Shown: positions 3,669 through 56,855 of the stretch, one piece after another
Layout: each line of letters opens with the position of its first letter
Position numbering within the stretch: position 1 is the first letter of the stretch
Source: Acidimicrobiales bacterium
GTDB lineage: Bacteria; Actinomycetota; Acidimicrobiia; Acidimicrobiales; JAHWLA01
Direction: 5' to 3'
Assembly (NCBI GenBank): GCA_035536915.1
Contig: DATLNE010000041.1
Span: 1 to 64,000 of the forward strand
Length of the DNA: 64,000 nucleotides
Position numbers and translations under genes: made by a program
Notes under the pieces: generated by a model
What the model was told of the DNA's origin: nothing
Databases searched by the model: none
The model's input: the letters and a program-made list of their open reading frames with translations, nothing else

Positions 3669-5060
3669 CTACGGAGTTGTTGGGTGTCCGTTCCGGCCGA
3701 GCGGCAGGTCCACCACGAAGCGGCTGCCCTGGCCGGCCTCGGACTCCACCCGCACCGAGCCAGAGTGGGCCTCCACCACGGCAGCCACGATGGCCAGCCC
3801 CAGTCCGGTGCCGCCCGCGGCGCGAGAGCGCGACGCGTCTGCGCGGTAGAACCGCTCGAACACCCGGTCCGCCACCTCGGGCGCCATGCCCGGGCCTTGG
3901 TCGGCCACTTGGAGGCGGGCCACGCCGTCGCGGGCGGCGAGCGAGACGGCCACCGGCGTGCCCGGCGGCGTGTGCACACGGGCGTTGGCCAAGAGGTTGC
4001 CGACCACCTGGCGCAGGCGCTGTTCGTCGCCTTCGACCACCACGGGGGCGATGTCGAAGGTGACGGGGCGGTCGGGTTCGACGGCCTGCGCGTCGCGCAC
4101 GCTGTCGGCCACCACGGCGTCGAGTTGCACCGGTGCGCGCTCCAACGGTCGGCGCTGGTCGATGCGGGCCAGCAGCAGCAGGTCTTCGACCAAGGCGCCC
4201 ATGCGCTTGGCCTCGTCCTCCATTCGGCGCATGGCGTCGGCCAACTCGTCCTTCGACTGCAAGCCGCCCGCCCGCCACAACTCGGTGTAGCCCTGGATCG
4301 ACGTGAGCGGCGTGCGCAGTTCGTGCGAGGCGTCGGCGGCGAAACGACGCACGCGTGCCTCCGATTCCTCCCGCTCCTGGAAGGCCTCCTCGATGCGGCC
4401 GAGCATGGCGTTGAGGGCCGCGCCCAGGCGGCCCGCCTCGGTGCGTTCGTCGACGTGATCGATCCGTCGCGACAGTTCGCCTTCGGCGATCTCGTCGGCC
4501 GTCTTGGCCATCGACACCAGGGGGTCGATGCCGAGGCGGAGCATCCACCACGCCACCGTGGCCAAGGCCGCGAGCACGGCCAGGGTGCCCACTGCCTGCA
4601 CCCACCGCACCTGGGCCAGGGTGGCCTCCAATTCGCTGAGGCTCAGGCCCACCACCGCGGTGCGGCCGTCGGGCCCGGCTACGCCGACTAAGCGCCACTT
4701 GCCGTCGCCCGACGCGGCGGGGACGGTGAAGGGCCGGCGTGCTTGGCCGGCGCCGGTGACGTTGGCCGCCAGTTGCGACAGGTCGATCACCGGCGGCGGG
4801 CGTTCGTCGGCCTGGAGGACGGAGGCCACTGTGAAGATGCCGCCGCCTTCGATGACGGCGATGTAGTACTCGGTGAGCGCCTCGTTAGGGCGGCCGAGCA
4901 ACCCGCGGCGCCCCTGCACGGTCTCGCTGGCGGCGATGAGCTGCTTGTCGAGGCGGTCGTGGAGGAACGACGAGAACGTGCTGGAGATCGCCACGTTGGT
5001 GGCCACCAGCACGAGGGCGATGGCAGCCACGCCGATGATCACCCGGCGGCGGAGCGACAT
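3669..5060 (-). CDS. sensor histidine kinase (MprB/MtrB-like, HAMP + HisKA + HATPase)
   Basis: H-box HELRTPLTSIQGY, ATPase G-boxes (DQGPGM, GGTGLGLAIV), two TM segments; start MSLRRR chosen because its ATG overlaps the response regulator stop (ATGA at 5058-5062). Confidence 0.85.
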   Translation of the reverse strand: MSLRRRVIIGVAAIALVLVATNVAISSTFSSFLHDRLDKQLIAASETVQGRRGLLGRPNEALTEYYIAVIEGGGIFTVASVLQADERPPPVIDLSQLAANVTGAGQARRPFTVPAASGDGKWRLVGVAGPDGRTAVVGLSLSELEATLAQVRWVQAVGTLAVLAALATVAWWMLRLGIDPLVSMAKTADEIAEGELSRRIDHVDERTEAGRLGAALNAMLGRIEEAFQEREESEARVRRFAADASHELRTPLTSIQGYTELWRAGGLQSKDELADAMRRMEDEAKRMGALVEDLLLLARIDQRRPLERAPVQLDAVVADSVRDAQAVEPDRPVTFDIAPVVVEGDEQRLRQVVGNLLANARVHTPPGTPVAVSLAARDGVARLQVADQGPGMAPEVADRVFERFYRADASRSRAAGGTGLGLAIVAAVVEAHSGSVRVESEAGQGSRFVVDLPLGRNGHPTTP

Positions 5061-5737
5061 CAGGAGACCCGCAAGGAGTAGCCGACGCCGCGGACCGTGT
5101 GGATCAACGGCGGGCCCAGGCGGTCGACCTTCTTGCGCAGGTAGCTGATGTAGGTCTCGACCACCGTGGCGTGGCCGTCGAAGTCGTACTGCCACACGTG
5201 GTCGAGGATCTGGTTGCGCGACAGCACGCGGCCTGCGTTCACCAACAGGAAGCGGAGCAGCTTGTACTCGGTCGGAGACAGGTCGACGACGTGGCCCGCG
5301 CGGCGCACCACGTGGGCGTCGTCGTCCATCTCCAGGTCGGCAAGGGCGAGCTTGGCGCTGCCCGCGCTGACGCCTTGGCGGCGCAACAGCACGTGGATGC
5401 GGGCCACCACCTCTTCCAGGCTGAACGGCTTGGTGACGTAGTCGTCTCCGCCCAGAGTGAGGCCCCGCACCTTGTCGTCGACCGCGTCGCGGGCGGTGAG
5501 GAAGAGGACGGGAACCTGGACGCCGTCGAGGCGGAGGCGGCGGAGGATCTCGAAGCCGTCGAGGTCGGGCAGCATGACGTCGAGGAGGAGGACGTCGGGG
5601 GCGAACTGGGCCACCTCTTTGAGGGCGCCGCGCCCGTCTGAGGCCACCCGCACCTCGAAGCCGAAGTGGCGCAGTGCGGTGTCGAGGAGGAAGGTGATGT
5701 TGTCTTCGTCGTCGACCACGAGGACGCGGGCGGCCAT
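5060..5737 (-). CDS. OmpR-family response regulator (MprA/MtrA-like)
   Basis: MAARVLVVDDEDNI...DVMLPDLDGF receiver domain plus a C-terminal winged-helix (trans_reg_C); ATG verified at 5735-5737. Confidence 0.9.
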   Translation of the reverse strand: MAARVLVVDDEDNITFLLDTALRHFGFEVRVASDGRGALKEVAQFAPDVLLLDVMLPDLDGFEILRRLRLDGVQVPVLFLTARDAVDDKVRGLTLGGDDYVTKPFSLEEVVARIHVLLRRQGVSAGSAKLALADLEMDDDAHVVRRAGHVVDLSPTEYKLLRFLLVNAGRVLSRNQILDHVWQYDFDGHATVVETYISYLRKKVDRLGPPLIHTVRGVGYSLRVS

Positions 5738-5814
5738 CGCTGTCGATTCTGGCACCGGTTCCTGTGAACTTCCTGGGAACGCGGTGGGAGGTACCCGTGG
5801 GCTAAGACAGGGGG

Positions 5815-6234
5815 ATGGACATCCTCTACACCGCCGACGCCACGGCATGGGGCGGCCGCGACGGGCGCGTGGCGTCCTCCGACGGCGTGCTCGACGTACA
5901 ACTGGCAGTGCCCAAGGCGCTGGGCGGGCCGGGCGGCGAGGCCACCAACCCCGAGCAGTTGTTCGCCGCCGGGTATGCCGCCTGCTTCCACAGCGCGCTG
6001 AAGCTGGTGGCGTCGAAGGCGGGCATCGACGTGAGCGAGTCGGCCATCACCGCACGGGTGGGGATCGGCGCCACCGAGGGCGGGGCGTTCGGGCTGCAGG
6101 TCCACCTCGACGCCGAGTTGCCCGACGTGGAACGTGAGACCGCCGAGAAGCTGGTGGCCCGGGCGCACGAGGTGTGCCCATACTCCAACGCCACCCGCAA
6201 CAACGTCGAGGTTGTGCTGAGCGTCGTGGGGTAG
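5815..6234 (+). CDS. OsmC/Ohr family peroxiredoxin-like protein
   Basis: 139 aa; Ohr/OsmC signature (AAGYAACFHSAL...EVCPYSNATRNN); divergent from the response regulator. Confidence 0.85.
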   Translation: MDILYTADATAWGGRDGRVASSDGVLDVQLAVPKALGGPGGEATNPEQLFAAGYAACFHSALKLVASKAGIDVSESAITARVGIGATEGGAFGLQVHLDAELPDVERETAEKLVARAHEVCPYSNATRNNVEVVLSVVG

Positions 6235-6244
6235 CACGAGGCCG

Positions 6245-6697
6245 ATGGCCGCCGTCCCCGACCCGGATCACCAGCGTCCCGAGGGGGTCGACGACGTGGT
6301 GGTCGAGGCGGCAGGCAAGGTGTCGGAGGCCTTCGAGTGGCTGGAACGGGCACGAGGGCGGCTCTACGACTTCCATCACCTGATCGGCCGGGCCGACTTC
6401 GTCATGGAGGACGCCGCCGAACTGCTCGAACGGTGCGGTGCATGCGAGCTCGCCACCCTCTTGCGAGAAGAGGTGATCGGCCGCAACGTGCTCGACGGGC
6501 GGTGGACGTTCCAGGTGGTCGAGGAGTTCGACGCCGTCTACTTCCAAGCGGCCGCCGACGCCGAGCGCCGGGTGCGCGACGAACTCCTGGGCGGACGACG
6601 GCACGTGTTCGAGGCGGAGCTGAAGGAAAAGCGCCGCACGCCGAAGCGGCCAGGCCACGAGAGCCTGCCGCCGTCCCGCCACCTCGACGACGGGTAG
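6245..6697 (+). CDS. hypothetical protein ('gene A'; a partial, diverged copy of its 3' end lies at 8100-8445)
   Basis: 150 aa ORF with plausible composition; its 3' 340 nt recur at about 95% identity downstream. Confidence 0.5.
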   Translation: MAAVPDPDHQRPEGVDDVVVEAAGKVSEAFEWLERARGRLYDFHHLIGRADFVMEDAAELLERCGACELATLLREEVIGRNVLDGRWTFQVVEEFDAVYFQAAADAERRVRDELLGGRRHVFEAELKEKRRTPKRPGHESLPPSRHLDDG

Positions 6698-6702
6698 ATC
6701 GG

Positions 6703-6726
6703 TGTAAGCGTATACGCTTACACCGA
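6703..6726. promoter_or_regulatory. perfect 24-bp palindrome GGTGTAAGCGTATACGCTTACACC (candidate operator or terminator)
   Basis: read directly from the sequence, between the gene A stop and the HTH-XRE gene start. Confidence 0.45.
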
Positions 6727-7286
6727 TGCGGACCGATGCGCTTGTCGTCTCGCTGCGGCGCGACAGTCGGCTCTCCGTGCGCGCGCTGGCCGCCGCTGCG
6801 GGCGTGGCCGCCAGCACCGTCCACCGGATCGAACGAGGCGACCTGCACCCCACGGTGGAGCTGCTGGAGCGGATCACCAAAGCGGCCGGCATGCGCCTTC
6901 GCCTCGACACCGAGGTCGATTACGCAGCCAGCCTTGTCGGGCTGGCTCGATGCCTGGGTGACGGCGAGCCCATCCGCATGGCTGCCGAGCTCGCGCACCG
7001 CTACCGGGCCGCCGACAGCATCACCCGAGCGCGCATGATCACCGCGGAGCCTGCACCCACGGGTGACGAGCGGTGGGACGCCTTCCTGGGTGGGCTGGCC
7101 GAATGGTTGGCCGTGACCACCGACGAGGCTGCGCCGGGCTGGGTGCACGACGACAGCCGCTTCCTGGCTCGCGGGTGGTGGGTGACGCCGATGAGGTCGA
7201 TGCGGGCGTGGGAGTACGCGGGGACGCCTGCGGCGTTCAAGATTCGCGGCGTCTTCCTCCACCGCGACTCGTTGAGGAACGTGTAG
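6726..7286 (+). CDS. XRE-family helix-turn-helix transcriptional regulator (antitoxin-like)
   Basis: 186 aa; N-terminal HTH_XRE-like segment (LRRDSRLSVRALAAAAGVAASTVHRIERGD); translationally coupled to the next gene. Confidence 0.6.
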   Translation: MRTDALVVSLRRDSRLSVRALAAAAGVAASTVHRIERGDLHPTVELLERITKAAGMRLRLDTEVDYAASLVGLARCLGDGEPIRMAAELAHRYRAADSITRARMITAEPAPTGDERWDAFLGGLAEWLAVTTDEAAPGWVHDDSRFLARGWWVTPMRSMRAWEYAGTPAAFKIRGVFLHRDSLRNV

Positions 7287-7801
7287 TGCTCAGTCGGGAG
7301 CGGATACTCCGGCTGTTCGCCGAGCTCGACCAAGAGCTTCGACGCATCGACGTGCGCGGCGACGTGTTCGTCGTCGGGGGCGCGGCCATGACCGTGGCCT
7401 ACGACGCCCGCCCCGCCACCCGTGACGTCGATGCCATCTGGCACCCGTCGACCGAGGTTCGGGAGGCAGCGGCCGCTATTGCGGGGCGCCATGACGACCT
7501 CGAACCGGACTGGCTCAACGATGCCGTGAAGGGCTTCCTGCCCGGGCCCGACCCTGCGCCGCGGGTGGTCTACGACGGGGACTTCTTGAGCGTGTCGGCC
7601 GCGTCGCCCGAGTACCTCCTGGCCACCAAGCTCTTGGCCAGCCGGGTGAGTCGTGACGAGGCCGACATCGTGCTGCTCTACGACGTGTGCGGCCTGACAT
7701 CGGTCGACGAAGGGCTCGAGGTCGTCGAGCGCTACTACCCCGGGCGCCCGATCGAAGCCAAGGTGCGCTTCTTCCTCGAAGAACTCATCGGCGACGAGTG
7801 A
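7286..7801 (+). CDS. nucleotidyltransferase-like protein (DUF6036/AbiEii/MNT-like fold), partner of the XRE regulator
   Basis: GTG at 7286 overlaps the TAG of the upstream gene; 171 aa; NTase-like core (VFVVGGAAMTVAY...RDVDA); the start codon is inferred. Confidence 0.5.
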   Translation: MLSRERILRLFAELDQELRRIDVRGDVFVVGGAAMTVAYDARPATRDVDAIWHPSTEVREAAAAIAGRHDDLEPDWLNDAVKGFLPGPDPAPRVVYDGDFLSVSAASPEYLLATKLLASRVSRDEADIVLLYDVCGLTSVDEGLEVVERYYPGRPIEAKVRFFLEELIGDE

Positions 7802-7805
7802 CGCC

Positions 7806-8085
7806 TTACAACTTGGGCGCGGGGCCGAGGCGGGGGCGGGCGAAGCGGCCGATGCCTCGCGGCAGGTCGCCGGTGACGGTTGGCGCGGGGACCGACGGCG
7901 CCACCGGCGCGCGCCGGAACGGGCCGAGCAGTTGCGGCACGTGGCCGGGCGCCTGGAGCAGCCCGAGGTACATGAGGATCAGCCCGACCAGCACCATCGC
8001 CGAGACCACCTGCGGCGTGCGCTCGGTCGAGGCCCGTCGGCCCCCGGGCGGCAGTGTCGACGGCGGTGCCCACATCGAAGCTTTC
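7806..8085 (-). pseudogene. truncated, diverged copy of the 3' end of gene B (9195-10202); retains the C-terminal TM segment
   Basis: about 280 nt, roughly 95% identical to 9195-9475; carries an internal deletion relative to the full copy. Confidence 0.55.
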
Positions 8086-8099
8086 GAAGTCCTCGAGCC

Positions 8100-8445
8100 C
8101 GGTGGGCGGCTCGTACGACCTCCATCACCTGATCGGCCGGGCCGACTTCGTCATGGAGGACGCCGCCGAACTGCTCGAACGATCGGTGCATGCGAGCTCG
8201 CCACCCTCTTGCGAGAAGAGGTGATCGGCCGCAACGTGCTCGACGGCCGGTGGACGTTCCAGGTGGTCGAGGAGTTCGACGCCGTCTACTTCCAAGCCGC
8301 CGCCGACGCCGAGCGCCGGGTGCGCGACGAACTCCTGGGCGGACGACGGCACGGGTTCGAGGCGGAGCTGAAACAGAAGCGCCGTACCCCGAGGCGGCCA
8401 GGCCACGAAAGCCTGCCGCCGTCCCGCCACCTCGACGACGGGTAG
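8100..8445 (+). pseudogene. partial, frameshifted copy of the gene A 3' end
   Basis: about 95% identical to 6360-6697, with a 1-nt indel (cggtgcggtgcatg versus cgatcggtgcatg) that breaks the frame. Confidence 0.55.
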
Positions 8446-8509
8446 GACTCGCCGCTACCGCATGGCTCGTGGTGGTGGTCAAGGCGGCCCACCGCGACAC
8501 TTCCAGGTC

Positions 8510-8953
8510 TCATGCCGCTGGGGCTGTCCCCCCATGCGGAGTTGCGTGTCGCGGTTCAATGGCCTCACGGACGGTCACGGCGACAGCAAGGGTTCCCGGA
8601 AGGTAAGCCAAGCTGTCGGCACCTAGCGCCCCCATCACAGTGAAGGTTCCTGTCAGCGCCAAGGCAGCAACCAACAGGACACGCTCCCGACGCCGTAGAT
8701 AACGCTGCAGACAGAGGGCCATTGCTTCGGGCGGCAGCACCAGGAGCGCCGCCACCAGAGGACCATGCTTCGTCGTCAGCGACACTCGATGCGGCGCTGG
8801 CGTCACCTGTGAGCTTCGTCCGTTCTCGATCTTGGCTGTCGCTATGGCAAGGCGGGGCGACGAGTGCACTGACTGCGTAGGAAACGATGCGAGATAGGCC
8901 GATGCTCCCAGGGTCAAGAGAACGCTCGCGATGACGAATCGACGCAACTCCAC
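8510..8953 (-). CDS. hypothetical membrane protein (lower-GC cassette)
   Basis: 147 aa with several hydrophobic segments; local GC lower than the flanks; no recognisable family motif. Confidence 0.35.
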   Translation of the reverse strand: MELRRFVIASVLLTLGASAYLASFPTQSVHSSPRLAIATAKIENGRSSQVTPAPHRVSLTTKHGPLVAALLVLPPEAMALCLQRYLRRRERVLLVAALALTGTFTVMGALGADSLAYLPGTLAVAVTVREAIEPRHATPHGGTAPAA

Positions 8954-9045
8954 GCGCTCAGGGTAGTCCGTAGTCCGCCCGGCACACTTGGCTAGCTTCG
9001 GTGATCTATAACGTCCGCCTTGACGACGACCGAGAGAGCGTCGAC

Positions 9046-9085
9046 TGCTTCTCTGGTATGCGTATAGAGGTTCTCTGATATGCGT
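9046..9085. repeat. tandem direct repeat TATGCGTATAGAGG x2 in an AT-rich intergenic region
   Basis: ctggTATGCGTATAGAGGttctctgaTATGCGTATAGAGGcc read from the sequence. Confidence 0.5.
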
Positions 9086-9194
9086 ATAGAGGCCTTTGCT
9101 CGGGTTCGATTGGGAGGCGCCAAAGCACCCGCTAACAATGCCTACTGCTGGTACGGATAGAGCTTGCGTACCGCAATAGCTTCGTGGGGCAACG

Positions 9195-10202
9195 TCAGAG
9201 CTTGGGCGCAGGTCCGAGCCGGGGACGGGCGAAGCGGCCGATGCCTCGCGGCAGGTCGCCGGTGACGGTGGGCGCGGGGACCGACGGCGCCACCGGGGCG
9301 CGCCGAAATGGGCCGAGCAGTTGCGGCACGTGACCGGGCGCCTGGAGCAGCCCGAGGTACATGAGGATGAGCCCTACCAGCACCATGGCGGAGACCACCT
9401 GCGGCGTGCGCTCGGTCGAGGCCCGTCGGCCCCCGGGCGGCAGTGTCGACGCGGGCACTGCGGCCGACGGCCCGCTGGCCGGCCCGCTGGGTGCCACCGT
9501 CGCCTGGGTCGTCGGCAACGGCACCCCGTCCACCAGCAACGGCGGTGAGAACGTCTCGGTCGGCACCCCGAAGGCGGTGCCCGCATCGAAGCCCTCGAAG
9601 TCCTCGAACCCGGCGGGCGGCTCGTCGCCGTCGGACTGGCCCGGATACGTCGTCACGGTGATGGCGTCGGCGCCCGGCTTTTCGAACGCCACCTGGAACA
9701 CCTTGCCCGCCGTGGGTTGGAGCACGATGTTCAGCATTCCGTTGCGCACCAGTCCGCCTACGGGAAAGCGGACCTTGCCCGCGATCACCGAGCCGTAGGC
9801 CAACGCGCCGACCTCGCACGCGGGTGCCCGGTTCAGCGGCCCGCCCTCCTCGGGCGCCCACACCCGATTGGCGATGCACGCTTCCACGGCGATGTCGCCC
9901 TGCGCCTTGGGCTGGCCGGTCGTCTCGTCGGTGTCGATTGCCAGCACCAATTCGCCCACCGCTTGGTTGTCGTCGACCGGCAACCGCAGCGCGGACTTGC
10001 CGGCCGGCGCTGTGGGCTCGCCCGCCACGTAGAGCCCGCCCGGGTCGACGGGGCTGGGCGGCGAGGCGGGCAGGCCCAACGCTTCGCCCGACGCCGCCCA
10101 CCACCACGCCGTCGCCTCCGGCGCATCGGCACCCACCGGCAGCGGGCCGACGACCATGACGAACCCCGCCACCAACGCCACGACGCCCAGCAGCCGCCTC
10201 AC
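9195..10202 (-). CDS. secreted/membrane-anchored hypothetical protein ('gene B'), last gene of the Liv-like ABC operon
   Basis: GTG start overlaps the TGA of the upstream ATPase gene (GTGA at 10199-10202); N-terminal signal-like segment (RRLLGVVALVAGFVMVV) and a C-terminal TM (VVSAMVLVGLILMYLGLL). Confidence 0.5.
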   Translation of the reverse strand: MRRLLGVVALVAGFVMVVGPLPVGADAPEATAWWWAASGEALGLPASPPSPVDPGGLYVAGEPTAPAGKSALRLPVDDNQAVGELVLAIDTDETTGQPKAQGDIAVEACIANRVWAPEEGGPLNRAPACEVGALAYGSVIAGKVRFPVGGLVRNGMLNIVLQPTAGKVFQVAFEKPGADAITVTTYPGQSDGDEPPAGFEDFEGFDAGTAFGVPTETFSPPLLVDGVPLPTTQATVAPSGPASGPSAAVPASTLPPGGRRASTERTPQVVSAMVLVGLILMYLGLLQAPGHVPQLLGPFRRAPVAPSVPAPTVTGDLPRGIGRFARPRLGPAPKL

Positions 10203-13126
10203 GTGGCCACCCGCCGCCGGCGGCGTCCGCCGTGCCCGTTGCCGTTGCCGTTGACCGTGCCCGACCGGTTGACGGCAGCCACGTCGCCGCCCAGGTACGA
10301 CTCCACCACCCGCGGGTTGCTGATGACCTCGGCGGGCGTGCCCTCGGCGATCACCGCGCCCAGCTCCAGGGCCAGCATGCGGTCGGAGATCTCGGTGATG
10401 AGGGGCATGTCGTGCTCGATGACGAGCATGGCGCACCCGGTCTCGGCCCGGATGCGGCGCAGCAACGGTGCCAGCGCCTCGGTCTCCCGCTGGGCGATGC
10501 CCGACGACGGCTCGTCGAGGATCAGCACCGAGGGGTCGTGGGCGATCGCCATGGCCAGGTCGACGATGCGGCGGCTGCCGGTCGACAGTTCCCCCACGAA
10601 CTTGTCGCGGAAGGCGCCGAGGTTCATCAGTTCGACCAGGTCCTCGACGGTCCACGCGATGTCGTCCTCTTGGGCCTTGGCCTCCGGCAAGCCCAGCGCC
10701 GAGGCGATGTGGTCACGCACCTCGAGGTGGCGCTCCAGCCCCATGGCCAGGTTCTCGGCCACGGTGAGGCTGGGGAAGATGCGGGCGTCCTGGAACGAGC
10801 GCCCCAGGCCGGCCCGGGCCCTTCGGTCGGGCGACCATGAACTGACCTCGACGCCTTCGAAATAGATGCGGCCGCCGTCGGGAGCCGTGAAGCCCGACAC
10901 CAGGTCGAACACCGACGTCTTGCCCGCGCCGTTGGGGCCGATGAGGCCGAGGATCTCCCCGCGCCACAAGTCGAAGGTCACGTCGTCGACGGCACGGATG
11001 CCGCCGAAGCGCTTGGAGATGCCGTTCACGGCCAGGATGGGCTCGTCGGCGCGGTCGATGTCGCCCTCGGTCGGCGCCGCACGGCGCGCCACCCGGCCGC
11101 CCGCCCCTTCGAGGAACACCGAGCGCAGGATGTCGCCCCGCTCGAGCAGTTCTTCGGTCGGCCCCGAGAAACGCACCTCGCCTTTCTCCAGGAAGTACGC
11201 CCGCTGGGCCAGCGTCAACGCCACGTTCACCGACTGCTCCACCACGATCACCGTGGCGCCCTGCTGGTTGATGTGGCGCACCATGTCGAGTAGCTGTTCG
11301 ACGATGGTGGGCGCCAAGCCCAACGACAGCTCGTCGATCATCAGCAGCTTGGGCCGGGCGATGAACGACATGCCCAACGCCAGCATCTGCTGCTCCCCGC
11401 CCGACAAGTTGCCGGCGAGCTGGTCCCACCGCTCGCGCAGGCGCGGGAACCGTTCGAGCACCTCGTCGGTCGCCTGCCGCACCCGCTCCTGCTCGTCGGC
11501 GAACAACCACGCCGCCACCCGGAAGTGCTCGGCCACGCTCAGCGTGGGGAACACGCCGCGGCCGCCCGGCATCTGGACGATGCCGAGCTTGGTCGACTGC
11601 ACGGCGTCGGCGTGGGTGATGTCGCGCCCCGCGAAGAAGACGGCCCCGCCGATGGGGTCGACGACGCCGCTGATGGCTTTCAGCAAGGTTGACTTGCCCG
11701 CGCCGTTGGTGCCCAGCAGGGCCACGATCTCGCCCTCACGGATCTCCAGGTCGACGCCGAAGAGCACTTGGACGGAGTCGTAGGCGACATCGACGCCCCG
11801 GCACGTGAGCAGCGCCTGCTGGCCGCTCTCCGCCAACTCCTCGCGCAGCCGCACCGCCGTGGCCAAGGTGGCGGCTGCTTGCGCGGCGTCGCGGGCGACG
11901 AAGCGGTAGGCGGAGTAGGCCAGCGCGCCACCCAGCACCAGCAGGGCCGACAAGACGCTGACGGCGACCCGGTAGCCCGCGTCGGAGTCGCCGATGGAGG
12001 CGATCAGCGGCGACAGCAAGCCGCCGAGGCCGAGGTAGAGGATGGCCCAGGCAAAGCCCTGCGAGCGCACCCGCGGCGGCGACACCAGGCCGACCAGCGG
12101 GAAGTAGTTGGGCTGGTACGCCCCGATGCCGATGCCCGCCACGAAGTTGAAGAACAACGACAGGCCCGACCAAGGCGAGACCGCCATGGCCAGCAACCCG
12201 CCGCCGATGAGCATGTACGACAGGCCGTTGTAGCGGGCCAGCTTGGGCAGGTCGCCCGCGGTCAACGCCCGGCCTGCCAACCGCTGTCCGTACAACAGGC
12301 CGACGACGGTGCCGAGGCCGGAGGCGAACACCACCATGCCCCGTCCCTGGGCCTCGAAGCCGTACTCCTGCTCGAAGAACAGCACCACGAGCTGCGTGAG
12401 GGTCAGCGCCCCGATGCCGAGTAGGAAGATGCCCGCCCACAACCGGCGCAGGGTGCGCACGGCGAACAGTTGGCGGCGGGCTTCACCGAACGGGACGGGC
12501 TCCAGCAGCGCGGCCTCGGCCGCCACGCCCGCGTCGACGCTCTCGCCCCGTAAGGGTTCGCGCAGCTTCACCAACATGGCGACGAGCACGAACGTGGGCA
12601 CCGCCAGGACGACGAACACGAAGCGCCAGTCCCACATCGAACCCAGCGCGCCGATGACGACGGCCGAGCCGAGCCCGATGGGGTTGGCCATGCGGTGGAA
12701 GGCGAAGACCTGCGGGTGGGTCGACGGGGCGTAGTAGTCGGAGAGCAGGCTGGCGTGCACCGGCTCGTTGATGATGCGCCCGACGGCGGCACCCATGCGG
12801 GCCACGATGAGCACGCCGATCACCGGGGCCAAGCCGGTGAGGATGGCCATGGTGCCCCACAGGAAGGCGGCGATGGCCGACAGGCGCACGCGCTTCACCC
12901 GGTCGGCGGTGAACCCGATGGGCAGGGCGGCCAACAGCGCCGTCACCGCGGCCAGCGAACCGACGGCGACGATGCCTTCGTCGGACAGGTTGAAGGCGTC
13001 GCGGATTTCCGGGGTCAGCACGCCGAAGGCGACCCGGTCGAACTCGTCGACCAGGTTGAGCCCGAAGAGGACGAGCAGCGGCAGCGCCGAGCCGCCGCCG
13101 GTAATGCGGTCGAGGCGCTCCTTCAC
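10199..13126 (-). CDS. fusion protein: N-terminal MFS-like 12-TM domain + LivG-like + LivF-like ABC ATPase domains
   Basis: 975 aa; roughly 430 aa polytopic N-terminus, then two Walker A sites (GTNGAGKST, GPNGAGKTS) and ABC signature LSGGEQQ / LSTGSRR. Confidence 0.8.
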   Translation of the reverse strand: MKERLDRITGGGSALPLLVLFGLNLVDEFDRVAFGVLTPEIRDAFNLSDEGIVAVGSLAAVTALLAALPIGFTADRVKRVRLSAIAAFLWGTMAILTGLAPVIGVLIVARMGAAVGRIINEPVHASLLSDYYAPSTHPQVFAFHRMANPIGLGSAVVIGALGSMWDWRFVFVVLAVPTFVLVAMLVKLREPLRGESVDAGVAAEAALLEPVPFGEARRQLFAVRTLRRLWAGIFLLGIGALTLTQLVVLFFEQEYGFEAQGRGMVVFASGLGTVVGLLYGQRLAGRALTAGDLPKLARYNGLSYMLIGGGLLAMAVSPWSGLSLFFNFVAGIGIGAYQPNYFPLVGLVSPPRVRSQGFAWAILYLGLGGLLSPLIASIGDSDAGYRVAVSVLSALLVLGGALAYSAYRFVARDAAQAAATLATAVRLREELAESGQQALLTCRGVDVAYDSVQVLFGVDLEIREGEIVALLGTNGAGKSTLLKAISGVVDPIGGAVFFAGRDITHADAVQSTKLGIVQMPGGRGVFPTLSVAEHFRVAAWLFADEQERVRQATDEVLERFPRLRERWDQLAGNLSGGEQQMLALGMSFIARPKLLMIDELSLGLAPTIVEQLLDMVRHINQQGATVIVVEQSVNVALTLAQRAYFLEKGEVRFSGPTEELLERGDILRSVFLEGAGGRVARRAAPTEGDIDRADEPILAVNGISKRFGGIRAVDDVTFDLWRGEILGLIGPNGAGKTSVFDLVSGFTAPDGGRIYFEGVEVSSWSPDRRARAGLGRSFQDARIFPSLTVAENLAMGLERHLEVRDHIASALGLPEAKAQEDDIAWTVEDLVELMNLGAFRDKFVGELSTGSRRIVDLAMAIAHDPSVLILDEPSSGIAQRETEALAPLLRRIRAETGCAMLVIEHDMPLITEISDRMLALELGAVIAEGTPAEVISNPRVVESYLGGDVAAVNRSGTVNGNGNGHGGRRRRRVAT

Positions 13127-54914: not shown

Positions 54915-56855
54915 CTAGCTCGGCCGCCCGGCGAGGAGTTGCACGGGGACGAACCCGCCCGTGCTCAGGTCTTGCCCGGTGCCCTGGCTGCCGCCCGCGG
55001 GCGGCATTGGTGATGCCACGACGTGCTCGATGCCGTAGCCCGTGCAGGCGCCGCAGTCGTAACAGGGGGTCCACCGGCAGTCCTCGACGCCCGACGCAGC
55101 CAGCGCGTCCTGCCAGTCCTGCCAGAGGAAGTCCTTGTGGAGCCCGGCCGAGATGTGGTCCCAGGGCAGGACCTCGTCCTCGTCGCGGTGGCGGTACACG
55201 TACCAGTCGACCGACAGGCCGTGCTTGGCCATGGCGTCCTCCCACAGCGAGAGGTCGAAGAACTCCGACCACTCCTGGAAGATGCCGCCGTTGCGCCACA
55301 CCTCCTCGATCACCGCACCCAGCCGGCGGTCGCCGCGGCTGGCAATGCCCTCGGCCAACGTGGCCTTGGGGTCGTGCCACTTGAGCTGCACGCCTTGGAC
55401 CTTACGGGCTGTGTCCTTCAAGAGGTTGACCTTGCGGCGCAGCTCGTCGACCGTGTTCTGGCCGAACCACTGGAACGGCGTCTGCGCCTTGGGCACGAAG
55501 CCGCCGACCGACGCCGAGACGGTGACCCGGCCCGAGTGCTTGCGCCCGATGGCTGCACAGTTCTTGGCCAACTCGACGATGCCGAGGGTGTCCTCGTCGG
55601 CCTCGGTGGGCAGGCCGGTGAGGAAGTACAGCTTGATGCGCTGCCACCCCTGGCTGAAGGCCGACTCCGCCGCGCCGTACAGGTCCTCTTCGCGGATGAG
55701 CTTGTTGATGACCTGGCGCATGCGCCAGGTGCCGCCTTCGGGGGCGAACGTGAGGCCGGTGCGGCGCACCTTGGCGATCTCGGTGGCGATGCCCACCGTG
55801 TAGGCGTCGACCCGCAGGCTGGGCAGGCTCACGCCGACCGAGCCTTGGCACATGGGGTCGTTGATGATGCCGCCCACCACGTCTTCGATGCCGGAGTAGT
55901 CGGCCGTCGACAACGAGGTCAGCGCCACTTCGTCGTAGCCGGTGCGCTGCAGGCCGCCGGTGACCATCGAGCGCACCTGCTCGTTGGACCGCTCGCGCAC
56001 CGGGCGGGTGATCATGCCCGCCTGGCAGAAGCGGCAGCCCCGGGTGCAGCCCCGGAACACCTCGACGTTGAGGCGGTCGTGCACCACCTCGGTCATGGGC
56101 ACCAGTTGCTGCTTGGGGTACGGCCAGTCGTTGAGGTCGGAGATCGTGCGCTTCTCGACAACCGCGGGGACGTCTGCGTACTTCGGGGTGACCGAGCGCA
56201 GCGCCTCGCCGTCGTAGGCCACGTCGTACATCGAGGGCACGTAGACGCCCGGCACTGTGGCCAGCTCGCGCAGCACGCCTTCACGCGACGTGCGCCCGCT
56301 GTTCTTCCAGCCCCGCACGACGGCGGTGATGTCGGACACCACCTCCTCGCCGTCGCCGATGACGAAGAAGTCGACGAAGTCGGCCAGGGGCTCGGGATTG
56401 AAGGCGCAGTGGCCGCCTGCGGCGATCAACGGGTGTTCAGGCGAGCGGTCCGCCGTGCGAACCGGCACGCCCGCCAGGTCCACGCAGTTCAACAGGTTGG
56501 TGTAGACGAGCTCGGCCGACAGGTTGAAGGCGATGAGGTCGAAGTCGCCCGCCGCCCGGTGGGTGTCGACGCTGAAGAACGGCACGCCGCGGGCTCGCAT
56601 CAGCGCTTCCATGTCGACCCACGGCGCGTAGGACCGCTCGGCGACCGCATCGGGGCGCTCGTTGAGGATCTCGTAGAGGATCTGGAGCCCCTGGTTGGGC
56701 AGGCCGATCTCGTAAGCGTCGGGATAGACGAGGAGCCAGGCGACCTTGTGCGGGCTGTGCACGGGAGCCTGCGCGCCGTCTTCGCACCCGATGTAGCGAG
56801 CCGGCTTCTGCACCTTGGCCAGCAGGGGCTCGATCCGCGGCCAGAGCGACGTCAT
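54915..56855 (-). CDS. B12-binding-domain radical SAM protein (TIGR03960-like)
   Basis: 646 aa; CxxxCxxC (CTRGCRFCQAGM); conserved pairing with DUF2344 upstream of rne. Confidence 0.85.
   Translation of the reverse strand: MTSLWPRIEPLLAKVQKPARYIGCEDGAQAPVHSPHKVAWLLVYPDAYEIGLPNQGLQILYEILNERPDAVAERSYAPWVDMEALMRARGVPFFSVDTHRAAGDFDLIAFNLSAELVYTNLLNCVDLAGVPVRTADRSPEHPLIAAGGHCAFNPEPLADFVDFFVIGDGEEVVSDITAVVRGWKNSGRTSREGVLRELATVPGVYVPSMYDVAYDGEALRSVTPKYADVPAVVEKRTISDLNDWPYPKQQLVPMTEVVHDRLNVEVFRGCTRGCRFCQAGMITRPVRERSNEQVRSMVTGGLQRTGYDEVALTSLSTADYSGIEDVVGGIINDPMCQGSVGVSLPSLRVDAYTVGIATEIAKVRRTGLTFAPEGGTWRMRQVINKLIREEDLYGAAESAFSQGWQRIKLYFLTGLPTEADEDTLGIVELAKNCAAIGRKHSGRVTVSASVGGFVPKAQTPFQWFGQNTVDELRRKVNLLKDTARKVQGVQLKWHDPKATLAEGIASRGDRRLGAVIEEVWRNGGIFQEWSEFFDLSLWEDAMAKHGLSVDWYVYRHRDEDEVLPWDHISAGLHKDFLWQDWQDALAASGVEDCRWTPCYDCGACTGYGIEHVVASPMPPAGGSQGTGQDLSTGGFVPVQLLAGRPS

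Follow-up and report, generated by a model that had tools for sequence, protein, structure and literature searches.

A putative autoregulated toxin–antitoxin module of a DUF6036 nucleotidyltransferase and an XRE helix-turn-helix partner in an Acidimicrobiales genome

Proposed module and its features

The 64,000 nucleotides examined in this study (referred to here as the window) are positions 1 to 64,000 of the forward strand of contig DATLNE010000041.1, assembly GCA_035536915.1, from an Acidimicrobiales bacterium. Positions 6698-7801 of the window probably constitute a self-contained, autoregulated two-gene toxin–antitoxin (TA) module that is similar to MenAT and AbiE and possesses a new antitoxin domain. 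Gene 1 encodes a protein with an XRE-type helix-turn-helix (HTH) followed by a conserved C-terminal domain (here the C-domain), gene 2 encodes a nucleotidyltransferase (NTase) of the family DUF6036, and a perfect palindrome lies at the start of gene 1. In the proposed mechanism, the gene 2 enzyme would arrest growth by adding nucleotides to the 3' end of RNA, probably the CCA end of tRNA, by analogy with MenT1, MenT3 and AbiEii. The C-domain would bind and neutralise the enzyme through sequestration, through auto-phosphorylation of an invariant threonine (T45) like that induced by MenA1 at MenT1 T39, or both. The XRE HTH, probably as a dimer, would bind the 20-bp core of the palindrome, TGTAAGCGTATACGCTTACA, and since the operon would be transcribed as a leaderless mRNA from a promoter overlapped by this operator, binding would repress its own transcription. 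Translation of gene 2 would follow by coupling, through a TAGTG overlap and an internal GAGGAA. The features of the cassette are as follows.

6698-7805: cassette, between gene A and a fragment of gene B
6698-6727, no strand: perfect palindrome of 30 bp, ATCGGTGTAAGCGTATACGCTTACACCGAT, read from the sequence
6703-6722, no strand: 20-bp core of the palindrome, putative operator of the XRE HTH dimer, from conservation across loci
6713-6718, + strand: TACGCT, a -10-like hexamer of the TANNNT type in the right arm, putative promoter element for a leaderless mRNA, 7 nt before the ATG
6726-7286, + strand: gene 1, putative antitoxin-repressor, 186 aa; its ATG is preceded by an in-frame TAA with no other start in between
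6753-6893, + strand: XRE HTH of gene 1, residues ~10-56, from Pfam
6903-7283, + strand: conserved C-domain of gene 1, residues ~60-186 (127 residues), from conservation
7274-7279, + strand: GAGGAA, Shine-Dalgarno-like site for gene 2, within the 3' end of gene 1 and 6 nt ahead of the gene 2 GTG (7286)
7284-7288, + strand: TAGTG stop/start overlap (TAG 7284-7286, GTG 7286-7288), read from the sequence
7286-7801, + strand: gene 2, DUF6036 NTase, putative toxin, 171 aa, GTG start, from Pfam

Conservation of the gene pair

A scan of one genome per species yielded 80 related loci. The C-domain was found directly upstream of the enzyme, on the same strand, in 77 of these loci by tblastn and in all 80 with a hidden Markov model (HMM) of the C-domain; of the three loci seen by the HMM only, one was cut by the end of its contig and one was interrupted by masked bases. 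The constant companion of the enzyme is not the HTH but the C-domain, a large conserved part of the partner that the initial annotation had not recorded. In the 18 closest loci with upstream DNA the partner consists of HTH and C-domain (a nineteenth, L017, is truncated where its contig ends), and in the remaining loci, approximately three quarters of the total, the partner is a protein of 130-145 aa consisting of the C-domain only. The stop codon of the partner gene runs into the start codon of the enzyme gene in 44 of 77 loci, with a 4-nt overlap in 21 and a 1-nt overlap in 23, and no third gene family recurs around the pair in the 80 loci. The pairing of C-domain protein and enzyme is obligate. 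This organisation is that of a type II TA operon, being bicistronic, with the partner gene first, coupled or overlapping genes, and a pair that is conserved in variable contexts. An initial annotation of the window, made from its letters and open reading frames (ORFs), had described a cassette of an XRE regulator and an NTase whose genes are translationally coupled at 7284-7288. Both families were confirmed and the pair recurs in 80 of 80 loci through the C-domain, and within TAGTG the TAG and GTG codons have one base in common, as had been proposed. Homologues of both proteins begin at the same residues as the predicted starts of genes 1 and 2.

The DUF6036 nucleotidyltransferase

Protein 2 matched DUF6036 (Pfam PF19502) over residues 8-129 with a score of 31.3 bits (cut-off 23.6; E = 2.2e-7), and it is 100% identical to a protein named 'DUF6036 family nucleotidyltransferase' at NCBI, from an Acidimicrobiales metagenome-assembled genome. 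The minimal GG...RDVDA core that had suggested an NTase to the initial annotation is found as G31-G32 and R46-D47-V48-D49-A50, within a set of key residues comprising G31 G32, T45-R46-D47-V48-D49, K115, R120 and R123-D124-E125-A126-D127. Motifs I-IV of AbiEii/DUF1814 were defined by Dy et al. as hG[G/S]-x(~15)-DhD with an arginine, K-L-x-A...R, and +DxxD (PMC3985639). Motifs I and II are present in protein 2 as V30-G31-G32, 14 residues and D47-V48-D49, with R42 and R46 ahead of D47, and motifs III and IV as K115-L-L-A-S-R120 and R123-D124-E-A-D127. Residues G31, G32, T45, D47, D49, K115, R120, D124 and D127 are invariant in 32 relatives with 52-75% identity, and the invariance of the catalytic residues at this level of divergence indicates that the active site is under selection. 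DUF6036 was matched by all 32 of these relatives and AbiEii, at E <= 0.01, by 21 of them, with two relatives that were scanned separately scoring 27.4 and 32.2 bits against AbiEii, over its cut-off of 22.5 bits. At E <= 0.01, family matches of the relatives were limited to DUF6036, AbiEii and DUF2204. Placement in an unrelated family with no NTase fold, which had been considered as the alternative, is therefore not what the profile searches returned.

Among characterised enzymes, the closest relative appears to be MenT1, which is matched weakly. No significant match was obtained with the enzyme in profile searches of the PDB. When a profile of the relatives was compared to all PDB sequences, MenT1 (8AN4) was the second match, at a non-significant E = 0.28, with an alignment in two colinear stretches that places TRDVD on T39-R40-D41-V-D43, K115 on K137, and D127 on D152. 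The four MenT1 residues concerned are those for which mutants have been examined with regard to phosphorylation, binding of nucleotides and NTase activity (PMC11375011). The MenT-type serine or threonine two residues before the first catalytic aspartate is also present, with T45-R46-D47 corresponding to T39-R40-D41 of MenT1; the known auto-phosphorylation sites are T39 in MenT1 and S78 in MenT3 (PMC11375011). MenT1 was also the top match, again a weak one, when a structural model of the enzyme was searched against the PDB with Foldseek. This model is only moderately confident (predicted local distance difference test, pLDDT, of 78.9, falling to <50 over residues 44-50), so the structural evidence is suggestive and not decisive. 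Taken together, these similarities place the enzyme in the AbiEii/MenT superfamily, as a compact member whose active site is intact and under selection. It is likely to be catalytically active, and by analogy with its relatives it would probably be toxic when unopposed. Its target may be the 3' ends of tRNA, as for MenT1, MenT3 and MenT4 (PMC10435456, PMC7450476), a possibility that has a good deal in its favour but falls short of being the probable case.

The partner protein

Protein 1 exceeded the Pfam cut-offs for both HTH_31 (36.2 bits; cut-off 27) and HTH_3 (31.5 bits; cut-off 23), and its HTH has the five helices of the XRE fold, which resembles that of dimeric operator-binding repressors; the earlier description of the first protein as an XRE-type HTH is thus well founded. 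The protein is 100% identical to a 'helix-turn-helix domain-containing protein' at NCBI from an Acidimicrobiales metagenome-assembled genome. The C-domain is all-helical and gave no Pfam match at E <= 10, the AbiEi and HEPN families included. A profile search of the PDB with the partner (E <= 10) found nothing significant beyond the HTH and no MenA chain. In PADLOC the partner matched generic HTH models only, and the C-domain matched neither a PADLOC nor an NCBIfam model.

The C-domain is widely distributed. A search of 1.84 billion cluster representatives at 50% identity found it in 670 clusters, always C-terminal, in proteins with a bimodal length distribution (~121-150 aa and ~180-216 aa). 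When ten of the longer proteins were scanned with Pfam, six carried an XRE HTH, one carried an AbiEi_4-like winged HTH, two were fusions to DUF6036/AbiEii, and one had no match. The protein with the winged HTH in place of the XRE domain (P0308, 329 aa) scored 24.2 bits against an AbiEi_4 cut-off of 25. In P0331 and P0361 (374 and 437 aa) the C-domain is fused to a DUF6036/AbiEii enzyme, and one of the two also carries an XRE HTH; these are putative fusions that could be artefacts of gene calling. On balance, the conserved arrangement of the two genes favours a C-domain that binds and neutralises the enzyme. That it does so by provoking auto-phosphorylation of T45, as in the pairs MenA1/MenT1, MenA3/MenT3 and AbiEi/AbiEii (PMC11375011, bioRxiv 10.64898/2026.01.19.700257), is a more tentative proposal drawn from analogy.

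The palindrome as a candidate operator

The initial annotation had reported a perfect palindrome of 24 bp at 6703-6726 and regarded it as a plausible autoregulatory operator. The palindrome is indeed perfect; its length is 30 bp and its position 6698-6727, and the 24-mer GGTGTAAGCGTATACGCTTACACC lies at 6701-6724. Its first base directly follows the TAG stop codon (6695-6697) of the upstream gene A, and at its other end it takes in the A and T of the ATG at 6726. No other perfect palindrome in the window exceeds 20 bp, and first-order Markov simulations of the 64-kb window (30 runs) gave maximum lengths of 16 to 24 bp. From base composition, approximately 5e-4 palindromes of at least 30 bp are expected per window by our own estimate. 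The 20-bp core, which ends 3 nt before the ATG of gene 1, occurs once in the window when up to 3 mismatches are allowed and was absent from 100 shuffles. Two other perfect palindromes in the window, ACCTGGCGCATGCGCCAGGT (20 bp, 55711-55730) and TGCCGCCCGCGGGCGGCA (18 bp, 54989-55006), are both within the simulated range.

Conservation across genomes supports the operator reading. A copy of the core precedes the start codon in all 18 loci that have an HTH-fused partner and upstream DNA, ending 0-4 nt before the ATG or GTG, with 0-4 mismatches in 17 of the loci and 6 in L005. The motif contains 1.92 bits per column compared to 0.12 in the 30 nt upstream, where the flanks are unrelated across loci. 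No copy of the core was found upstream of the HTH-less partners (approximately 60 loci). In addition, 113 homologues show little or no variation in the HTH recognition helix (S30-T31-V32-H33-R34-I35-E36), a constancy that matches the constancy of the core site. A core that is conserved, linked to the HTH, and set among unrelated flanks is the pattern expected of an operator for the HTH protein, and the same pattern rules out reading the palindrome as a mere terminator for whichever gene happens to lie upstream. It is therefore the operator reading that the comparison upholds, rather than the possibility, raised along with it, that the palindrome acts only as a terminator. As far as sequence conservation can indicate, an HTH dimer probably binds the core and represses the operon.

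The control region also contains a candidate promoter element. Motif positions 11-16 read TAYGCT in 19 of 19 sequences, fit TANNNT, and lie 6-8 nt before the start codon, and the spacer of 0-4 nt between motif and start codon leaves no space for a Shine-Dalgarno site. Actinobacterial promoters with a -10 element of the form TANNNT and leaderless mRNAs are in keeping with a hexamer inside the operator. The spacing without room for a ribosome-binding site and the TANNNT hexamer in the core point to a leaderless mRNA from a promoter overlapped by the operator, where binding would repress. The right arm, GCTTACA, is almost invariant, and left-arm positions 5 and 8 vary, without compensation in several loci, which is consistent with the right arm serving two roles, as operator and as -10 element. 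A leaderless transcription start for the operon is somewhat favoured by these features, and it is a less secure proposal than binding of the core.

Two observations count against this account of the control region. A scan with the sigma-70 consensus gave no promoter, so that the leaderless model depends on the spacing and a weak TANNNT match. Furthermore, complementarity continues 2-5 bp beyond the core, with differing sequences, in 5 of 19 loci, which is above mismatched-pair controls (binomial tails 0.003-0.016). These extended palindromes are found in the window (6698-6702 and 6723-6727), L014, L010, L004 and L007, and in the window and L014 the extension reaches the start codon. Simple operator binding does not explain the extensions, which suggest some selection for a hairpin or cruciform besides the operator, and a secondary role of a hairpin, such as silencing read-through transcripts from upstream, may exist.

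These extensions also count in favour of a palindrome that is only structural and no protein-binding operator, whether it insulates the module from gene A, as a terminator or a hairpin would, or serves as a recombination hotspot. Such a palindrome would fit its start on the base after the gene A stop, its location exactly at a boundary of the duplicated flanks described below, and the G-U pairing kept in several core variants. In the transcript, the palindrome is predicted to pair into a hairpin of 13 bp in which the AU of the start codon is hidden, as part of a fold with an energy of -44.7 kcal/mol (z = -3.8). However, it is the sequence of the core and not pairing alone that is conserved despite unrelated upstream genes, the variation at left-arm positions 5 and 8 is uncompensated, and the motif is confined to loci whose partner carries the HTH. 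No T-tract follows the palindrome and no terminator was called on the + strand, the only terminator-like sites being on the minus strand inside gene A. A hairpin function is moreover compatible with an operator function, and a purely structural palindrome is very improbable.

Some side observations concern other possible regulatory sites. Among the loci with HTH-less partners, other strong upstream palindromes, CAAATCTGCAGTGACTTCACTGCAGATTTG and GATCAGCGCGAGCTTGTCGCGCTGATC, were seen in L037 and L039 (-82 to -53 from the partner start) and in L049, L050 and L058, and these may be sites of a separate regulator. In the window, adjacent 21-bp direct repeats (TCTCTGrTATGCGTATAGAGG) at 9050-9070 and 9072-9092 have the heptamer GCGTATA in common with the operator core, which may reflect chance or a site of another regulator.

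Distribution and plasmid carriage

Homologues number in the thousands and occur in Frankia, in many metagenome-assembled genomes (Mycobacteriales, Acidimicrobiales and other Actinobacteria), and on plasmids of Mycobacterium and Rhodococcus. Relatives of the enzyme with 35-49% identity were found on 32 actinobacterial plasmids, from Mycobacterium, Rhodococcus, Mycolicibacterium, Curtobacterium, Clavibacter and Tessaracoccus. On a plasmid of M. intracellulare (L161; NZ_CP012886.2, 152791-158297), a C-domain protein and a DUF6036 enzyme lie among TA-type genes, where the 'hypothetical protein' upstream of the enzyme is the C-domain homologue. The neighbours there are a RES family NAD+ phosphorylase with an Xre/MbcA/ParS-type antitoxin and, after a small hypothetical-protein gene, a PIN domain nuclease. 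The neighbours of the pair vary between genomes. Carriage on plasmids, TA-type neighbours and varying contexts together make this a context typical of TA genes. This type of module is common in Actinobacteria and their plasmids, and no study of it was found in the literature searched.

Evidence against the module and alternative explanations

It is important to note the evidence that runs counter to a TA module. No experiment backs toxicity, neutralisation or DNA binding for any DUF6036 member, and the family appears in no paper of the literature searched. The AbiEii (PF08843) score of protein 2 itself is 15.8 bits, under the cut-off of 22.5, and the enzyme matched neither a PADLOC model (no family at E <= 1) nor an NCBIfam model. 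The C-domain has no detectable relative among solved structures or in Pfam, leaving its antitoxin role to gene order and co-occurrence alone. No relative was found among INPHARED phages or IMG/VR contigs, and as a result a role in defence has no direct support.

There are two potential alternative explanations for the gene pair. The enzyme could be a housekeeping NTase, or one that modifies a small molecule such as an antibiotic or metabolite, accompanied by a dedicated regulator whose C-domain senses a ligand. In its favour, small molecules are substrates of many NTases with the pol-beta fold, there are numerous XRE regulators with a C-terminal sensor domain, no function has been tested for DUF6036, and the cassette does not differ from the host genome in GC content. 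However, approximately three quarters of the loci have a partner that lacks any DNA-binding domain and is still joined to the enzyme, often through overlapping codons, and putative fusion proteins unite the C-domain with the enzyme. The restriction of the enzyme's family matches to DUF6036, AbiEii and DUF2204, the plasmid on which the module adjoins a PIN-domain gene and a RES/Xre pair, and its unrelated genomic contexts also speak against this explanation, which is unlikely. Alternatively, the roles could be reversed as in HEPN–MNT pairs, in which case the NTase would nucleotidylate its partner, as an antitoxin or modifier, and the toxic component would be the C-domain. Points in favour are the antitoxin function of minimal NTases in HEPN/MNT pairs (PMC7641770), the small size of the enzyme (171 aa), the all-helical nature that the C-domain shares with HEPN, and an R-x4-H string within the C-domain (R174-G-V-F-L-H179). 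This string at residues 174-179 is not conserved, since several close homologues have His in place of R174 and the HTH-less relatives have not kept H179, and a HEPN-like partner was rejected on these grounds; the C-domain has no HEPN match in Pfam even at E <= 10. The enzyme, in turn, possesses the DUF1814-specific motifs III and IV and matches DUF6036/AbiEii and not MNT families, and the HTH-bearing gene comes first, as antitoxin genes do in AbiE and MenAT. Reversed roles are thus rather improbable, and a TA pair with the NTase as toxin and the C-domain protein as antitoxin-repressor is the preferred interpretation.

Comparison with known systems

MenAT1 (Rv0078B–Rv0078A of M. tuberculosis; 8AN4, 8AN5) resembles the module in having a small NTase encoded after the antitoxin (a 196-residue chain compared to 171 aa here), an identical T-R-D-V-D loop, and an aligned catalytic lysine and last motif IV aspartate, and the equivalent of T39 is the invariant T45. 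MenT1 adds cytidine monophosphate to the 3' ends of tRNA and is switched off by antitoxin binding and T39 auto-phosphorylation (PMC10435456, PMC11375011). In contrast to the 186-aa protein described here, with its XRE HTH and an unrelated 127-aa domain, MenA1 is a helical peptide of 68 aa without a DNA-binding domain. MenAT1 shows no transcriptional autoregulation (PMC11375011), whereas a conserved putative operator is present here. Similarity between the enzymes is limited to motifs (E = 0.28), and Pfam assigns the enzyme to DUF6036 and not to AbiEii. The module is therefore not MenAT1, given that the antitoxins are unrelated.

A second set of relatives comprises AbiE (AbiEi–AbiEii of Streptococcus agalactiae), MenAT3/MenAT4 and the COG5340–DUF1814 pairs, which are likewise bicistronic with the antitoxin first and have toxins with motifs I-IV. 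The antitoxins of AbiE and MenAT3/MenAT4 combine an N-terminal DNA-binding domain, responsible for negative autoregulation at inverted repeats, with a C-terminal antitoxicity domain (PMC3985639, PMC7319586). The partner described here also has two domains with the DNA-binding domain N-terminal, and its relative P0308 bears an AbiEi_4-like winged HTH. In contrast, the DNA-binding domain here is of the XRE/Cro type instead of a winged HTH, the C-domain matches no Pfam AbiEi family, and a single palindrome of 20-30 bp takes the place of two 23-bp inverted repeats. The Pfam AbiEii model, with 238 positions, exceeds the enzyme in length by approximately 100 residues. The module is not AbiE as defined, on account of an antitoxin that does not belong to the COG5340 type, an enzyme score below the AbiEii cut-off, and the lack of a PADLOC match. 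HEPN–MNT (HepT–MntA) modules share the two-gene organisation, a minimal NTase with the pol-beta fold and a helical partner. They differ in that the partner here has neither a conserved Rx4-6H motif nor a HEPN match, the enzyme has motifs III and IV of the DUF1814 type, and the opposite polarity is indicated by the order of the genes and by the location of the HTH.

Gene 2 is a member of PF19502 (DUF6036, 'nucleotidyltransferase of unknown function'), an entry that lists no function, partner or regulatory site. Compared to this entry, the obligate partner domain, the putative operator and the MenT1-type active site are new, and no description of an XRE and AbiEii-like pair of this kind was found in the literature searched. 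It is possible, as a speculative extension of these comparisons, that the module represents a fifth branch of MenAT/AbiE, widespread in Actinobacteria and present on Mycobacterium plasmids, in which a new class of antitoxin induces T45 auto-phosphorylation (type VII) of a minimal MenT1-like tRNA NTase and the control region is reduced to one 20-bp operator over a leaderless -10 element. NTase toxins such as MenT and AbiEii are a recently understood class that extend tRNA 3' ends, block translation, and are controlled by antitoxin-induced auto-phosphorylation. If the proposed interpretation is true, the module would add to this class a minimal and widespread branch with simple, predictable regulation and an antitoxin domain that has no known relative, and it would provide a function for DUF6036 and for its unnamed partner domain. 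No concept would be overturned, and a TA specialist would not be surprised. The prediction is sharp and cheap to test, as one 20-bp site, one invariant threonine and four catalytic residues are named.

Genomic context and flank duplication

The GC content of the window is 69.5% and that of the cassette approximately 70%, the same as the host genome. The cassette fills the entire space between two convergent genes, with 0 nt after the stop of gene A and 4 nt from the enzyme stop to the copy of gene B. The interval from gene A to gene B is tandemly duplicated (6245-10655) with two different cargoes, and comprises the following features in addition to the cassette.

6245-6697, + strand: gene A, intact, encoding 150 aa without a match to any family; the 333 nt at its 3' end recur at 8114-8445
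7806-8113, - strand: gene B fragment, 3' end only; identity of 95% between 7812-8061 and 9201-9450 and of 89% between 8058-8114 and 9569-9625
8104-8112: 9-nt microhomology GGGCGGCTC joining the gene B and gene A fragments
8114-8445, + strand: 3' fragment of gene A, truncated and frameshifted, 96.5% identical to 6365-6697 with a 1-nt indel
8446-9194, no strand: cargo 2, of lower GC content (58-62% compared to ~70%), with a 147-aa ORF on the minus strand at 8510-8953
9195-10655, - strand: gene B, intact

The initial annotation had regarded the pair as the cargo of one duplicated-flank unit, and the flanks agree with this (6365-6697 with 8114-8445 at 96.5% identity, and 7812-8061 with 9201-9450 at 95%). 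From the arrangement of the copies, we infer that the duplication is the scar of a single crossover between two alleles with different cargo, or of a circularised donor fragment. Transposition was considered and rejected, as there are no terminal repeats and the conserved unit elsewhere ends at the operator and at the stop codon. An assembly artefact is an unlikely cause of the duplication, judging from the 3.5-5% difference between the copies and a junction of only 9 nt. The suggestion that the module is mobile therefore holds with regard to its variable context, plasmid carriage and the recombination scar, and fails with regard to transposon ends, which are absent.

The 147-aa ORF of cargo 2 had no match in Pfam, NCBIfam or PADLOC, and Rfam and tRNA scans of 6000-9500 and 5000-11000 returned nothing. 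Neither gene A nor gene B was found in any of the 80 cassette loci. Homologues of gene A with 52-69% identity were present in 80 metagenome loci, and a search for empty sites among these gave 37 longer loci with a gene A homologue and neither a cassette nor gene B nearby. Among the cassette loci, one, L003 (Microthrixaceae), has homologues of the response-regulator and histidine-kinase genes that lie near the cassette in the window. Comparison of L003 (6413-8457) with the window (3669-5848) places its cassette approximately 2 kb from the homologues of the response regulator (58%) and the histidine kinase (42%). The cassette of L003 is in the opposite relative orientation, and the neighbourhood thus appears to be variable in both genomes.

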